Of a stretch of 64,000 nt of DNA, positions 4,379 to 49,089 are shown one piece after another. The notes under the pieces were generated by a model, which did not search any database, had not been told where the DNA came from, and saw only the letters and a program-made list of their open reading frames with translations. The DNA comes from Octopus sinensis. Its lineage: Eukaryota. Made by a program: the position numbers and the translations under genes. Position 1 is the stretch's first letter. Each line of letters opens with the position of its first letter. The stretch covers positions 138,756,001 to 138,820,000 of the forward strand of contig NC_042997.1 of the NCBI RefSeq assembly GCF_006345805.1, written 5' to 3'.

Positions 4379-4410
<32 letters not shown>

Positions 4411-4663
4411 TTAAAAATTAAGGGTAGAAATTGATATTAGTCAATTAAAACCAGTGGTCTAGCACATTAAAAAGAATCCGAAGATTAAAATATTTATATA
4501 TACCAATTAAGGACTGAACACGAAAAGGTGGACAGTCAACATGCTAGATATAGACGTCAAATCGCCATTCTCCACAAGGATTATGTTCTCAAATAAAAAT
4601 AAAATTTAGCACGACCTAAAGCAATGGATGAGACAAAAGAAATATACTAAATGGAATAATTAC

Positions 4664-4723
4664 CTACGTACTGCAGTTTCAGCTATTAATATCACAAGGA
4701 TATCTGTAACTTCATCAGCGTAG
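4664..4723 (-). ncRNA. Type I hammerhead ribozyme (family B, inverted arm)
   Basis: Reverse complement of 5278-5337 with one G-U pair in stem II. Confidence 0.88.
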
Positions 4724-5277
4724 TTTGTTATGAGCATAATATGCTGTACTAGATGAAAAACGGTACCGGAGTCCCGCATGCAAACAGTACAGATATCCTT
4801 GTGATATTAATAGCTGAAACTGCAGTACGTAGGTAATTATTCCATTTAGTATATTTCTTTTGTCTCATCCATTGCTTTAGGTCGTGCTGAATTTTATTTT
4901 TATTTGAGAACATAATCCTTGTGGAGAATGGCGATTTGACGTCTATATCTAGCATGTTGACTGTCCACCTTTTCGTGTTCAGTCCTTAATTGGTATATAT
5001 AAATATTTTAATCTTCGGATTCTTTTTAATGTGCTAGACCACTGGTTTTAATTGACTAATATCAATTTCTACCCTTAATTTTTAAATATGAAATATAGGT
5101 CTCAAACCGATAAATTGACTGCTGCTAATTATTGGCTGCAGGCTAGTTTTTCGATTATCAGCGCGCCAAAAGTAGAGGCATTCGAAAGATACATCCGAAC
5201 GTAATAGGTTGTACTTTTTGCATGCGGGACTCCGGTACCGTTTTTCATCTAGTACAGCATATTATGCTCATAACAGA

Positions 5278-5337
5278 CTACGCTGATGAAGCTACAGATA
5301 TCCTTGTGATATTAATAGCTGAAACTGCAGTACGTAG
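5278..5337 (+). ncRNA. Type I hammerhead ribozyme (family B)
   Basis: ctacg CTGATGA agcta...tagct GAAAC tgca GTA cgtag; perfect stems I and II, palindromic stem III ACTGCAGT, predicted cut after 5332. Confidence 0.92.
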
Positions 5338-5730
5338 GTAATTATTCCATTTAGTATATTTCTTTTGTCTCATCCATTGCTTTAGGTCGTGCTGAATTTT
5401 ATTTTTATTTGAGAACATAATCCTTGTGGAGAATGGCGATTTGACGTCTATATCTAGCATGTTGACTGTCCACCTTTTCGTGTTCAGTCCTTAATTGGTA
5501 TATATATATATATATATATATATATGTAGATATATGTATGTATATGTATGTGTGTGTGTGTATATATATATATATATGGGTGTGTGTGTATGTATGTGAG
5601 TATGTATATGTGTGTGTGTGTGTATATATGTATACATATGTGTATAGGTATATATTTATATATGTATATATATATAAATATGTATATATAATATATTTAT
5701 ATATGTATATATAATTATATATTTATAATG

Positions 5731-5766
<36 letters not shown>

Positions 5767-5800
5767 TTGATCAAAATAAAAACATGATGCGAAGGATTCA

Positions 5801-5878
5801 GCGGTACATATGTTTCGGGCCTTTATTAGACAGATTTATAACAATGCATAATGTATGTCTGTGGCCTTCTTCAGCCGC
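5801..5878 (-). ncRNA. Type I hammerhead ribozyme (family C, inverted arm)
   Basis: Reverse complement of 8732-8809. Confidence 0.85.
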
Positions 5879-6487
5879 GCACAACAGCTTCCACAAGGAC
5901 ATGTGTTACATAAAAAATTCTTGGTTGGGGATGCAAATCCTCTCATTCGCGTACGACATAATGCGCAGCAGCATAGAATTGAAGCGTCCATCTCTTTCTT
6001 CTCTCAATGTAGAATGAGGAAATTTGGATGTTGAAGTAATGTAAATAAATAAATACATATATAGACGTGAAGATGGAGGGGCGAGAATTCAGGACGAGGG
6101 ATAAAAAATGTATAAAAAGTGTAAGTATAGAAAAATATAAAAAGTAGTAGAGTATAAAGATATAAAGGGATATAAGGAGATGTAAAGGGGGGGTATAAAG
6201 AATATAAAGAAATATAAAGAAATATAAATAAATGTAAAGGCATAAGGTTATAAAGTAAAAATAGAAATAGAAATAAAAGTAAAAAGTAAAAAAATAAAAA
6301 TAGGAATAAACATGATAAAAATGTAAAAAAAATATAAAGATAAGGGATGTATAGAGGTTACGGACCAAACATGGTGGTCAGGAGATTGATAAAATTTAGT
6401 TGTAGAAGTTTTGGGTGTCAATAAATCAACAGTGTCGTCTGGGGACCTAATGTGTTGTAAATCAGAGCTGTTGAGCGTTTAATCTGG

Positions 6488-6763
6488 TCCTCGCTGAAAC
6501 ACAGACATAAGGCTAACAGCACCTCCCTTTCTAAAAGAATTTGGGAATTAAAAGACAAATGCATAGGCTTCAAACTCAGGTGGTCCATCATCGGATCAGC
6601 TGCACCTTATTTAAATAATAGAGCAGGATGCCAACTATGTTGTGTAGAACTCCTGAACATCTTGAAATTCAAAGACAAACACAATCTTATTAACAAAAGG
6701 TCAGAGTTCAAACCATCCTGTATACACAAACTTATAAATACTTTCAAATACTACAAAGCGTAG
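6488..6763 (+). pseudogene. C-terminal fragment of a PLE GIY-YIG endonuclease domain (Neptune-like)
   Basis: Manual translation, absent from the ORF track: SSLKHRHKANSTSLSKRIWELKDKCIGFKLRWSIIGSAAPYLNNRAGCQLCCVELLNILKFKDKHNLINKRSEFKPSCIHKLINTFKYYKA*. Matches the NSTxLSKxIWELK...WSI...CxLC..E...LNKRSE...CxH pattern; uninterrupted frame that begins at the inversion junction. Confidence 0.85.
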
Positions 6764-8731
6764 GTTATTATACCAACTCCCCCATGCAATTTCCTCCCAC
6801 CCGGTGCAACCTGTCGGCTCCAGCACATCCCGCTTTCCTATATGTGCGTGTATATGCGTATATGTGTGCGTATGTATATGTATGTGCACGTATATGTATA
6901 TATATATATATATGTGCGTGTGTGTGTGTGTGTGTGTGGGTGTGTGTATGTGCATATATGTTTCCCTGCATTTTCCTCCTATATATACAAATTTTGTCTC
7001 CCATATATGTCTTCTTTTCCCTACATATTTCTTCTCCTACACCCATATCCTTCCTATATAGTCTCTTTATTTCCCTATATCTATACCCTTTCACATTTCT
7101 AACTCGGATGTTGAACGCACACCGCCAAACTCCACTTCCCACCCTTCCAATTTTCAGTTCCCCCCGCCCGCCCCTACGTGGGCACCTTTAACACACACCT
7201 CTAACTTTCAACCACCTTCATCTCATGTTAAACTTTACCAAATTATATTTTTATTTTATTTTATTTTATTTTTATTTTTGCTTTTATTTTTACTTTTATT
7301 CTACTTCGATTTATTCTCATTTTTATTTTCATCCCTTATCTTAATTCTTATAATTTTTATAATTTTTATATTTCATTTCTAACCTTTACATTGTATTTCT
7401 TATTTTATACTGTATTTCTTACTTTTATTTCTAATTTTTACCCTTACCCTCATTCTTACCCCTAACTTATCGCTTTATATCTCTATATATGTCTATTTTT
7501 TTTGCTTATCCCTTATTTACTTACCTATGGATCCACTTTATGATTATACGAGCGTCCGTGTACGTATGTATACGTATACATATATGTACATATGTACGAG
7601 TAAACATCTACGTCTGGATGTACATACCCCGTATTTCTTTTTTTACATGTTTTCTTATATTCATATGTTTACACCTATTTGTATACATCTTTTAATATCT
7701 TATAGCTATACCCATATGCGCGTATGTCTCTGTGTGTGCATGTAAGTGTATATGTGCACGTACATATGGACACACAGCCGTGTGTGCGTGCACGTGTAGA
7801 CGTGAGTGCGTGATTCTTTACATACGTTCTTATATACATCCTTTAATATCTTATATCTAAACCTGGAAGCGTGGGCATATGCGTATGTGTATGTAAGGAT
7901 GGGCGCACGTATGTACATATGGGTGTGTACACGTATAATGTCCGTGTATACATGCGGATATTATGTTGTATGTATGTATATGTACGCGCGTGCGTGTGGG
8001 TGTGTGTGTGTTTATGTACATGTTTACACGTGAGTGCGTGTGTATGCTTATAGGCTTGGAGGCGTATATGGGTGTATGTATCCATGATGGTATGTATGTA
8101 CTAGATGACCAATTAATTCAAAGAACCAGATTAAACGCTCAACAGCTCTGATTTACAACACATTAGGTCCCCAGACGACACTGTTGATTTATTGACACCC
8201 AAAACTTCTACAACTAAATTTTATCAATCTCCTGACCACCATGTTTGGTCCGTAACCTCTATACATCCCTTATCTTTATATTTTTTTTACATTTTTATCA
8301 TGTTTATTCCTATTTTTATTTTTTTACTTTTTACTTTTATTTCTATTTCTATTTTTACTTTATAACCTTATGCCTTTACATTTATTTATATTTCTTTATA
8401 TTTCTTTATATTCTTTATACCCCCTTTACATCTCCTTATATCCCTTTATATCTTTATACTCTACATTTTTATATTTTTCTATACTTACACTTTTTATACA
8501 TTTTTTATCCCTCGTCCTGAATTCTCGCCCCTCCATCTTCACGTCTATATATGTATTTATTTATTTACATTACTTCAACATCCAAATTTCCTCATTCTAC
8601 ATTGAGAGAAGAAAGAGATGGACGCTTCAATTCTATGCTGCTGCCGCATTATGTCGTACGCGAATGAGAGGATTTGCATCCCCAACCAAGAATTTTTTAT
8701 GTAACACATGTCCTTGTGGAAGCTGTTGTGC

Positions 8732-8809
8732 GCGGCTGAAGAAGGCCACAGACATACATTATGCATTGTTATAAATCTGTCTAATAAAGGCCCGAAACAT
8801 ATGTACCGC
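8732..8809 (+). ncRNA. Type I hammerhead ribozyme (family C)
   Basis: gcgg CTGAAGA aggcc...ggccc GAAAC atat GTA ccgc; palindromic stem III ACATATGT. Confidence 0.85.
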
Positions 8810-8934
8810 TGAATCCTTCGCATCATGTTTTTATTTTGATCAATTTACTCCACCACCTACACCACCAAACGGTATACACAGGTGCTTATAATTATCAAGT
8901 ACTCACCCCGAATTTCTATATATATATATATATA

Positions 8935-13935: not shown

Positions 13936-14328
13936 CAAAAGAAACTTTAATCAACATACGCAGACTAAGTGTACCCCACTTACTATAATCTAATCTTTAT
14001 TTGATAAAGTAATTTAGTGTATCTAATTTGGGTAAGTGCTTTTTACTATAGTCTCGGGCCAACCAAAACCTTGTGTGTGGATTTGGTAGACGGAGACTGA
14101 AAGAAGCCTGTCATATATATATATATATATATATAAGTAATACTAAGCAATAAGGGTTTAGCAACGAGTTGCCTTACCACATACCGAATTTAGAAATAGC
14201 AGTCAAAGGGTTATAGCTATTTCTTCTACTAAAAAGGGAGATCTCAGTAAAAACAGCATTTGGAAGGCAGACACAAACAGGTAAGAGAGAATGAATTGAC
14301 TGCAATCTATCATACATTTTTTTAGTTA

Positions 14329-14435
14329 TCCACGGACGTACGTTTCGAAATCAAGTTTTTAGGAAAGCATAAGAATTAAATATTAAATATTAAATAATTC
14401 TATCTTACCGAAACTTCTTTTCTCTTCAGCGTAGA
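14329..14435 (-). ncRNA. Type I hammerhead ribozyme (family D, inverted arm)
   Basis: Reverse complement of 14684-14790. Confidence 0.85.
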
Positions 14436-14683
14436 ATACTATAATCATAAATGATTATATATTGAATTTTGAGATACCAGAAGGCACCAACTCAACTCAG
14501 TATCAGAGCGAGCTAGAATCCGCAACTGGTATCACCGAATTCAATTTGTGAATGAAACGATTGTGTCAACAGCCCCTTCCCACCCGCGTGTAGCCAAAAC
14601 AAGATGCTGTGGTCATCTACTGAGATAAAATATGGTATCTGGTATCTCAAAATTCAATATATAATCATTTATGATTATAGTAT

Positions 14684-14790
14684 TCTACGCTGAAGAGAAA
14701 AGAAGTTTCGGTAAGATAGAATTATTTAATATTTAATATTTAATTCTTATGCTTTCCTAAAAACTTGATTTCGAAACGTACGTCCGTGGA
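14684..14790 (+). ncRNA. Type I hammerhead ribozyme (family D)
   Basis: tctacg CTGAAGA gaaa...(long loop)...tttc GAAAC gtac GTC cgtgga; predicted cut after 14784. Confidence 0.87.
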
Positions 14791-15089
14791 TAACTAAAAA
14801 AATGTATGATAGATTGCAGTCAATTCATTCTCTCTTACCTGTTTGTGTCTGCCTTCCAAATGCTGTTTTTACTGAGATCTCCCTTTTTAGTAGAAGAAAT
14901 AGCTATAACCCTTTGACTGCTATTTCTAAATTCGGTATGTGGTAAGGCAACTCGTTGCTAAACCCTTATTGCTTAGTATTACTTAAATTTTCCTCGAATG
15001 AGGCTTTTACATGCCGAAGACTACTTGGTGTAATTGATAATTTTTCCAAATTAATTAATTTCACCCTTCATTATTACGGATATATATAT

Positions 15090-21488: not shown

Positions 21489-21590
21489 CACAACGATCGT
21501 TTCGAACCATCTTGCGACGGTTCTTTGCGCGTGGGATACTGTACAACTGGCTATGTTGCATTCTCTGGTGTAGATGCATCTCATCAGGTG
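21489..21590 (-). ncRNA. Type I hammerhead ribozyme (family E)
   Basis: cac CTGATGA ga...tc GAAAC gatc GTT gtg; palindromic stem III. Confidence 0.72.
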
Positions 21591-21825
21591 TCTTGTTTTA
21601 AAGAAGATATCTCGCTAGATATATTCGGTTCCGCTTGGTATGTTATTCTTGCCAGTAGGTTATTGGCTATAAGGCCAATAAGAAGGAAAACTGTATATAT
21701 GTATATATACGTGTGTATATAATGTATGTGTCTTATCAAGTGCCTTATAGCCAATAACCTACTGGCAACAATAACATACCAAGCGGAACCGAGTATATTT
21801 AGAGAAGTATCTTCTTTAAAACAAG

Positions 21826-21929
21826 ACACCTGATGAGATGCATCTACACCAGCGGATGCAACATAACCAAATATACAGTATCCCACGTGCAAGAGACCGA
21901 TGCAAGATGGGTCGAAACAATCGTTGTGT
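21826..21929 (+). ncRNA. Type I hammerhead ribozyme (family E)
   Basis: acac CTGATGA gat...gtc GAAAC aatc GTT gtgt. Confidence 0.72.
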
Positions 21930-34828: not shown

Positions 34829-35526
34829 TATATATGTATATAATATATATAATATATATATACATATTATATATAGATATATATATACATATATCTATAA
34901 CATAATATATATATATACATATAATATATATATATATATATAAATATATATATATAATATATATATACATATATATATAGTATATATATATACATATATC
35001 TATAACATATATATTACATATATATATATATACATATATATATTACATATAATATATATATATATATAAATATATACATATGTATACGTATATAAATAGG
35101 TGTATATATATATATATATATATATGTAATACTAAGCAATAAGGGTTTAGCAACGAGTTGCCTTACCACATACCGAATTTAGAAATAGCAGTCAAAGGGT
35201 TATAGCTATTTCTTCTACTAAAAAGGGAGATCTCAGTAAAAACAGCATTTGGAAGGCAGACACAAACAGGTAAGAGAGAATGAATTGACTGCAATCTATC
35301 ATACATTTTTTTAGTTATCCACGGATATGTATATAGATATATGTATATAGATAGGTATATATATATATATATATATTATATAGAGAGAGAGAGAGATAGA
35401 TAGATAGGTATATTAATATATATATATATATATATAGATAGATAGATAGATAGGTATATATATATATATATATATTATATGTATATAGATAGGTATATAT
35501 TATATATATATTATATATTATATATG

Positions 35527-48210: not shown

Positions 48211-48235
48211 GTCTGTCAGTCTCTATATACATATG

Positions 48236-48267
<32 letters not shown>

Positions 48268-48311
48268 TGTATGTATGTATGTATGTATGTATATATATAT
48301 ATATATATATA

Positions 48312-48981
48312 TAATCAATATAGGGTGGCAAGGAAAATTTTGTAGAATTTTATTGCCACCAGCGGCCCAGTGGGAAAAAATTAAATAGTCATAGACCATT
48401 TTTAAGTTCAACAATAACAATTAAGGAACGGCCATAATAGGCCATTCACCCACTAGAAATAACAGCCAAAGCTGTTATTGTAATTGTTATTGTTGAACTT
48501 AAAAATGGTCTATGACTATTTAATTTTTTCCCACTGGGCCGCTGGTGGCAATAAAATTCTACAAAATTTTCCTTGCCACCCTATATTGATTAATTATGAA
48601 TTTTTTGGTTAATTCCGTAATGGAATCGACGGCTGATATTTATTTGCTGCCGATAAATTTGGCGCGAGTGCGACGATTTGAAAATTTTAGGTCAGATATT
48701 GACTTGGCAAGATTGGGTATGCCTCGTGTAAATATCTGTTCCGACTTGAGCTATTTCTTGCTGAAGAATCCGAGGGCTTATGGAAGATTGGCTTGATTTA
48801 ATTTAATCATGTTAGTTTACCATTAAACAGCGGATGAAACGGTATACCGTACAAGAAATTACAGGGTAAATGTTTTTTTAATTTTCTCCTGTTTACGGAA
48901 TTGATCTTTATTTGCGGTAGAAGCTTTGGCTGTTATTTCTAGTGGGTGAATGGCCTATTATGGCCGTTCCTTAATTGTTAT

Positions 48982-48982
<1 letters not shown>
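48312..48982 (+). mobile_element. Non-coding hammerhead retroelement family G (491-nt unit plus an inverted arm spanning the unit junction)
   Basis: taattgttatt at 48481 and 48972; 48312-48473 is the reverse complement of the unit end joined to the unit start; (TA)n flanks. Confidence 0.88.
48753..48859 (+). ncRNA. Type I hammerhead ribozyme (family G)
   Basis: atttcttg CTGAAGA atccg...cggat GAAAC ggtatacc GTA caagaaat; perfect 8-bp stem I, 5-bp stem II, palindromic stem III; predicted cut after 48851. Confidence 0.93.
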
Positions 48983-49016
<34 letters not shown>

Positions 49017-49027
49017 CTATCTATCTA

Positions 49028-49089
<62 letters not shown>

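Follow-up and report, generated by a model that had tools for sequence, protein, structure and literature searches.

We describe here a family of small hammerhead repeats in the genome of Octopus sinensis (2.72 Gb, rich in microsatellites), represented by a copy at 48312-48982 of the window, i.e., the whole stretch of 64,000 nucleotides that was analysed (contig NC_042997.1, positions 138,756,001 to 138,820,000). This copy is one member of a dispersed 491-nt hammerhead repeat family found inside (TA)n. It is a new family of a known kind, a non-LTR retrozyme that bears the footprint of PLE-type integration; its 491-nt tandem units, within the 150-1000 bp typical of that class, each have a type I hammerhead, and they are non-coding, low in G+C and dispersed. 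The form of the insertions gives good support to double priming at two fixed sites, and we consider it probable (roughly 60%) that the family has spread as a circular RNA monomer, copied in rolling-circle fashion by a PLE-type RT/endonuclease from both cut target strands.

The features of the window copy are collected in Table 1. The reverse complement of 48312-48473 matches the unit at 442-491 (50/50) and then directly at 1-112 (112/112), that is, with 100% identity. The initial annotation had proposed that this inverted arm joins the last part of the unit seamlessly to its first, producing a contiguous sequence without counterpart in the direct copy, and so it does, as the direct copy carries only 11 nt past the end-to-start junction. 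The same 11 nt had been taken as a terminal redundancy. Their recurrence is real (TAATTGTTATT at 48481 and again at 48972, a distance of 491), but they are not a terminal repeat of the element. Since 5' ends vary over the whole unit, the redundancy is incidental, the product of the chance stop of this copy; what stays constant among copies is the ribozyme and the two sites, A and B. Besides, reading through the junction occurs in every tandem array, and therefore cannot by itself separate a circle from a multimer. None of 100 shuffles folds as well as the unit (z -4.75). The unit has a G+C content of 178/491 and, as already noted at the outset, contains no credible ORF: in the natural array the longest ATG frame has 66 codons in sense and 10 in antisense. 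The RT + GIY-YIG reading frame of an autonomous PLE is absent from the unit, and PLE proteins gave 0 matches by tblastn against the window.

Table 1. Features of the 491-nt family copy in the window (window positions; unit positions where given).
Feature	Position	Strand	Remarks
Left flank	48228..48311	.	(TATG)n/(TA)n, target repeat
B arm	48312..48473	-	unit 442-491 + 1-112; outer (3') end = site B, beside (TA)n
Filler between arms	48474..48480	.	7 nt; short fold-back or duplication
A arm	48481..48982	+	491-nt unit + 11 nt; outer (3') end = site A, beside (TA)n
Tail	48489..48597	+	site A (unit 9-11) to site B (unit 110-117), ~105 nt
Hairpins within tail	48503-48521, 48544-48580	+	predicted
Type I hammerhead	48753..48859	+	Rfam Hammerhead_1, structure scan, covariation
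Hammerhead stem I	48753-60/48852-59	+	8 bp
Hammerhead CUGAAGA core	48761-67	+
Hammerhead stem II	48768-72/48831-35	+	5 bp, long paired loop II
Hammerhead GAAA	48836-39	+
Hammerhead stem III	48839-50	+	palindromic
Predicted cut	48851/48852	+	unit 371/372
Right flank	48983..49086	.	(TA)n, target repeat

A genome search with the direct arm, in which 39 of 696 candidates were scored, gave at least 292 matches, with 98-100% identity among the 150 matches listed, and exact end patterns were found genome-wide for 148 A ends and 737 B ends. The family is thus young and dispersed, with hundreds of members. We mapped 38 loci from the first search (biased towards long arrays), 40 selected by their A end and 20 by their B end, the latter two sets taken in list order, together with the window copy; the total is 100 records, with locus L154 contributing two. 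A second, diverged element at L037, local duplicates in L061 and L065 and one spurious chain each in L142 and L147 were left out of the counts, and L067, L119, L147, L154b and L157 were additionally left out of the 5'-neighbour and collision counts given below. Two arms were present in 81 of the 100 records, always head-to-head (minus then plus), and one arm in 19, three of which (L035, L039, L055) have in the flank a partner arm too short to map. Arrays reach up to 12.4 units per arm. The sequence (TA)4 lies within 30 nt of 157/161 outer ends, and this (TA)n target masks any target-site duplication. The inner junctions of 78 loci range from -65 to +24 nt, mostly within 10, i.e., small overlaps or fillers. 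The 5' ends are spread over the entire unit with no LTR arrangement, and none of the mapped copies is a colinear part of a longer element bearing ordinary terminal repeats. The element left out at L037 (8997-9896) is an older, diverged relative with a different middle section, located 1.7 kb from a young copy; exceptionally, both of its arms were mapped as ending near site B.

The outer ends of the 100 records fall either at site A (unit ~9-11) or at site B (~110-121); in an older subfamily, whose sequence differs there, site A maps to unit ~1. One A end is combined with one B end in 80 of the 81 two-armed loci, 79 of them directly and one (L046) after its far end was fetched, with no A/A or B/B locus and only L066 remaining. 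Among loci selected by the A end the partner was B in 35/40, and among those selected by the B end it was A in 19/20; no partner arm was seen in the others. The tail of ~105 nt, bounded by sites A and B, is consequently present on one end only. Both ends of an insertion are 3' ends of the element, as would be expected from priming off both cut target strands. The early suggestion that a circular or multimeric template was primed twice thus finds support in 100 insertion records and in the strict pairing of their ends. First-lap A arms stopped near site B more often than expected (8 vs 3.2, p=0.017, with zones picked post hoc and the tail hairpin as a confounder) and no B arm stopped at site A, which gives a weak hint of collision of the two cDNAs at the opposite start site.

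A different origin for the inverted arm would be single priming followed by fold-back self-priming, along the model of PMC3846280, with later growth and homogenisation of the arrays by unequal exchange (the satellite route outlined in bioRxiv 10.64898/2026.07.22.740005). Near-palindromic centres, found in 19/77 loci and thus above chance (p=3e-4), speak for it, as do 14 private variants (see below) that are only partly spread. However, the inner ends are out of phase by >25 nt in 58 of the 77 clean pairs, and therefore fold-back copying cannot be the general rule for the inverted arm. In 43 of these pairs the A arm extends further, in 24 the B arm does so, and in 10 the two end together. Moreover, the inverted arm of the window copy contains a junction absent from its direct arm. 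The lengths of the two arms correlate (rho 0.44, p=0.001, n=52, an end-selected sample), so array length seems to be set at insertion, and we found no case of a private variant that is fixed in a single arm. Already disfavoured as a general rule, this combination seems to us highly improbable.

As the initial annotation stated, the best hammerhead of the window is that of the unit: the window scan found 6 motifs, and in none of the others are stems I and III as long. It matches Rfam Hammerhead_1 with E=0.0095 and 21.4 bits, under the gathering score of 34 bits because loop II is long. Rfam run over the whole window also gave miRNA matches among the 150 rows listed, which were discarded as driven by microsatellites. 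Across 15 distinct ribozyme copies 98.9% of the cells are paired, and two-sided changes occur in 5 pairs (two in stem I, two in stem II and one at the palindrome centre), while the core changes at its variable seventh position. The count of two-sided pairs alone was equalled by 41/500 shuffles and the 15 rows are related, so that the covariation supports a kept structure as a qualitative argument and not as a formal probability.

The ribozyme also leaves a mark on the ends of the copies. Inner ends fall at unit 372-400 in 38/174 cases, where some 10 would be expected (p=2e-12), and the excess begins abruptly at the predicted cut (372). The stop rate in this stretch is 9.2% per pass, compared with 2.4% per 29 nt elsewhere, and it is steady from lap to lap (9/151, 8/90, 7/56, 4/39 and 10/77). 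The junction 371/372 itself is passed seamlessly, with 3, 3 and 1 indel events at 370-372 in ~385 passes and no peak. These stops fit equally well a circle with a ligation site that is cut again or is difficult to read, and the cleaved 5' end of a linear multimer. This second template, a linear, partly self-cleaved multimer of an already uniform parent array, would also be copied by double priming at A and B, and the sharp edge at 372 is what one would look for if it were used. The 10/77 pairs in which both arms halt at the same template position point in the same direction, and count against a circle. Likewise, axolotl retrozymes have multimeric RNAs (PMC7229834) and the main substrate in vitro was uncleaved RNA (PMC11167929).

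The variation among arrays bears on the choice between the two templates. A single-base change present in every unit is the prediction of rolling-circle copying from one monomer. In 82 young loci we found 31 variants fixed in one locus only, spread over 22 loci. Of the 37 repeated private variants at sites represented in both arms, 23 were in all units of both arms and 14 were partial, and the 51 well-covered loci carried 38 haplotypes. By exact genome search, the variants of L140 and L046 had 13 and 14 matches, respectively, all within their own locus. That of L150 was also present in a separate two-unit insertion, an observation against the circle. From a linear multimer arrays could only shrink, yet arrays of ~13 and ~16 units bear variants found nowhere else, and single-site A>G changes occupy whole arrays; the number of haplotypes is equally at odds with it. 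The array-wide private variants (23/37, with two of the three searched unique to their own locus) thus favour rolling-circle copying. The parent array could be absent from the assembly, a point to be held against the circle. Taken as a whole, the linear multimer is to us an unlikely template, although one that deserves real weight. No periodic variant patterns of the sort expected of dimer or trimer circles were seen by eye.

The clearest case against a pure monomer circle is L157 (5283-6694), in which a 233|372 joint, unique in the assembly, is present in both arms and is followed by an intact unit and junction. Its template was therefore longer than one monomer, or was jumped, and a single RNA, or a single pair of RNAs, served for the two arms; the joint is one more argument for the linear multimer. 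The joint itself may represent RNA ligation of a cleaved 5' end to the wrong partner. It starts exactly at 372, as would be the case if linear cleaved monomers were copied with repeated jumps from 5' end to 3' end, building arrays with no covalent circle involved. The steady rate per lap of the cut-site stops would also agree with such jumps, and so would locus L186 of the 505-nt family described below, with a shortened unit repeated in one arm only. Template jumps, however, usually leave untemplated or lost bases, and there is no indel excess at 371/372 in the ~385 passes. We consider this route improbable.

The fixed variants have a direction. Read on the ribozyme strand, A>G changes outnumber T>C (18 vs 8, p=0.005), also when only private fixed variants are considered (12 vs 5, p=0.024), while singletons show no such lean (14 vs 18). 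The 5' neighbour is U at 12/18 of the A>G sites against a background of 43/130 (p=0.004), and a 5' U is the neighbour preferred by ADAR (PMC9989829). We count this lean in favour of the circular monomer, and its absence from 18 older loci (8 vs 9) against it.

From these observations we propose the following cycle for the circular monomer. Arrays would be transcribed, and the hammerhead, the structure and covariation of which are described above, would cut the RNA at unit 371/372, probably in a dimeric form held by its palindromic stem III. The monomers would then be ligated into circles, by analogy with other animal retrozymes. A PLE protein, probably a dimer, would cut both (TA)n strands, one cDNA starting at A and the other at B, in line with the observed pairing. 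Each cDNA would run for zero to twelve laps, with a chance of ~9% per lap of halting at the ribozyme junction, as the end statistics show, and the two cDNA 3' ends would be joined through microhomology or short filler, as seen at the inner junctions, and presumably filled in by repair. More tentatively, and with slightly less than even confidence, the insertions could be read as a record of two-headed rolling-circle retrotransposition, in which an asymmetric PLE dimer grips the hairpin tail of a single circle and primes a cDNA on each side from the two (TA)n strands, A-to-I edits being copied into all units of both arms. If true, the tandems, the head-to-head inversions and the one-sided tail of PLEs would share a single mechanism, and RNA editing would become a heritable source of change for the element.

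Since no PLE locus inspected shares a terminal repeat with the unit, the helper enzyme is a matter of inference. A profile search with PF01541 gave 147 matches, and the PLE families inspected combine RT with GIY-YIG, their CX4CxxC motif being that of Neptune/Nematis. No terminal repeat common to the unit and a coding PLE was found among 50 GIY-YIG loci (150 of 5029 candidates scored), and this counts against a PLE helper; a short-query search for shared sequence returned family copies only. An 18-nt antisense match inside the reading frame of one PLE family was judged to be due to chance. The same genome has a coding PLE copy (L117) with head-to-head arms, the ends of which differ by a 33-nt tail, and L118, whose arms are also head-to-head, has a minimal hammerhead some 90 nt ahead of its end. 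Another locus (L101:2136-6979) holds a young PLE family with two frames, of 479 and 781 codons. Near-identical copies of this family are numerous, its 3' region contains short tandem repeats, and the scan found no canonical hammerhead in it. As for RNA, no records carrying the unit were listed. In three runs guessed to be RNA, contigs cover the unit and not the adjacent single-copy stretch; a high-copy repeat such as this may stem from DNA traces, and the coverage was therefore set aside.

The genome contains many such hammerhead families. One of 505 nt, at 4400-5511 of the window, likewise has head-to-head arms, its tail measuring some 85-90 nt, and is unrelated to the 491-nt family at the blastn level, as had been claimed. 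It gave at least 111 matches when 40 of 1505 candidates were scored. In 20 mapped loci, both outer ends were at the family's own two sites in 6, the inverted arm ended elsewhere or was cut off in 3, and 11 had one arm in the stretch examined. Short CCTTAATT-like motifs are common to these sites and to sites A and B of the 491-nt family. In L186:3027-3612 one arm of this family repeats a shortened 223-nt unit and the other consists of three full units. A third family, at 14114-15079 of the window (with a lone fragment at 35103-35325), again has its arms head-to-head, and here the tail is some 95 nt long. At 21560-21900 inverted arms lie on either side of a centre rich in TA, and position 21830 has a hammerhead-like core. 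Two 730-bp inverted repeats with 99% identity (5763-6491 and 8122-8847) flank 1.6 kb. Unrelated hammerhead motifs, some in inverted pairs, were also found beside PLE copies at L103:7264-8375, L104:1851 and 7397-8513, and L106:7521-8728.

Among known systems, the closest are the metazoan non-LTR retrozymes (Cervera and de la Pena, 2020, PMC7229834; Li, Clavereau and Pollet, bioRxiv 10.64898/2026.07.22.740005). They are also non-coding tandems of a few hundred bases with low G+C and one type I hammerhead per unit, dispersed and co-occurring with PLEs. Their repeats are expressed as circles, with PLEs proposed as helpers (PMC7229834), and the synthesis of tandem cDNA from such circles has been put forward as a proposal (Discussion of PMC7229834; PMC4209133). 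The 2026 preprint links retrozymes to the terminal repeats of PLEs and gives preference to local amplification at a later stage. A word search of PMC7229834 and of the preprint found no description of inverted arms or tails. In contrast, the 491-nt family has head-to-head arms, strict A/B ends and array-wide private variants; on the other hand, circles have been demonstrated for metazoan retrozymes and would be predicted for our family.

Similarities are also evident with the endonuclease-bearing PLEs (Penelope/Poseidon, Neptune, Naiad), for which PMC8557442 and PMC3846280 report partial tandems, an inverted 5'-truncated head-to-head copy, a tail at one end, a (TA)n target and a hammerhead in the terminal repeat. 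The inverted 5' copies, the one-sided tails of 30-40 bp and the (TA)n targets are presented there as features of unexplained origin, self-priming being the proposal of PMC3846280 for the inverted copies. The 491-nt family differs in having no reading frame, a tail of ~105 nt instead of 30-40, up to 12 units per arm and no homologous coding element found. The Poseidon of Anolis (PAc) offers a biochemical parallel (Frangieh et al., 2024, PMC11167929). In vitro, two internal start sites bound a tail, the target is AT-rich, both target strands are cut and extended, and the protein is a predicted dimer. Unlike in our insertions, with one A and one B each and a ribozyme structure that has been kept, both strands use both PAc sites alike and ribozyme cleavage is dispensable, which argues against the PLE model.

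The plant LTR retrozymes, with a type III hammerhead inside LTRs, can be ruled out by the type I motif and the tandem units. LINE-1 twin priming also uses both target strands to prime cDNA, resulting in an inversion, but its second primer anneals at variable places and its arms do not overlap on the template, whereas the 491-nt family has two fixed sites and arms that overlap by up to many units. In the literature covered, mostly the main texts of open-access papers, we found no published report, for elements of this kind, of insertions that strictly pair an A with a B end, of private variants spread over whole arrays or of a signature of editing. How PLEs come to make tandem and inverted insertions, with a tail at one side, is an open question according to PMC8557442. 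The 491-nt family bears on it, as its hundreds of insertions with 98-99% identity make start sites, stop sites and template identity readable. It makes the mechanism directly testable: every event should have a single start at A and a single start at B, copying of the 491-nt circle should continue beyond the first lap, and edits of the RNA should appear in the DNA.
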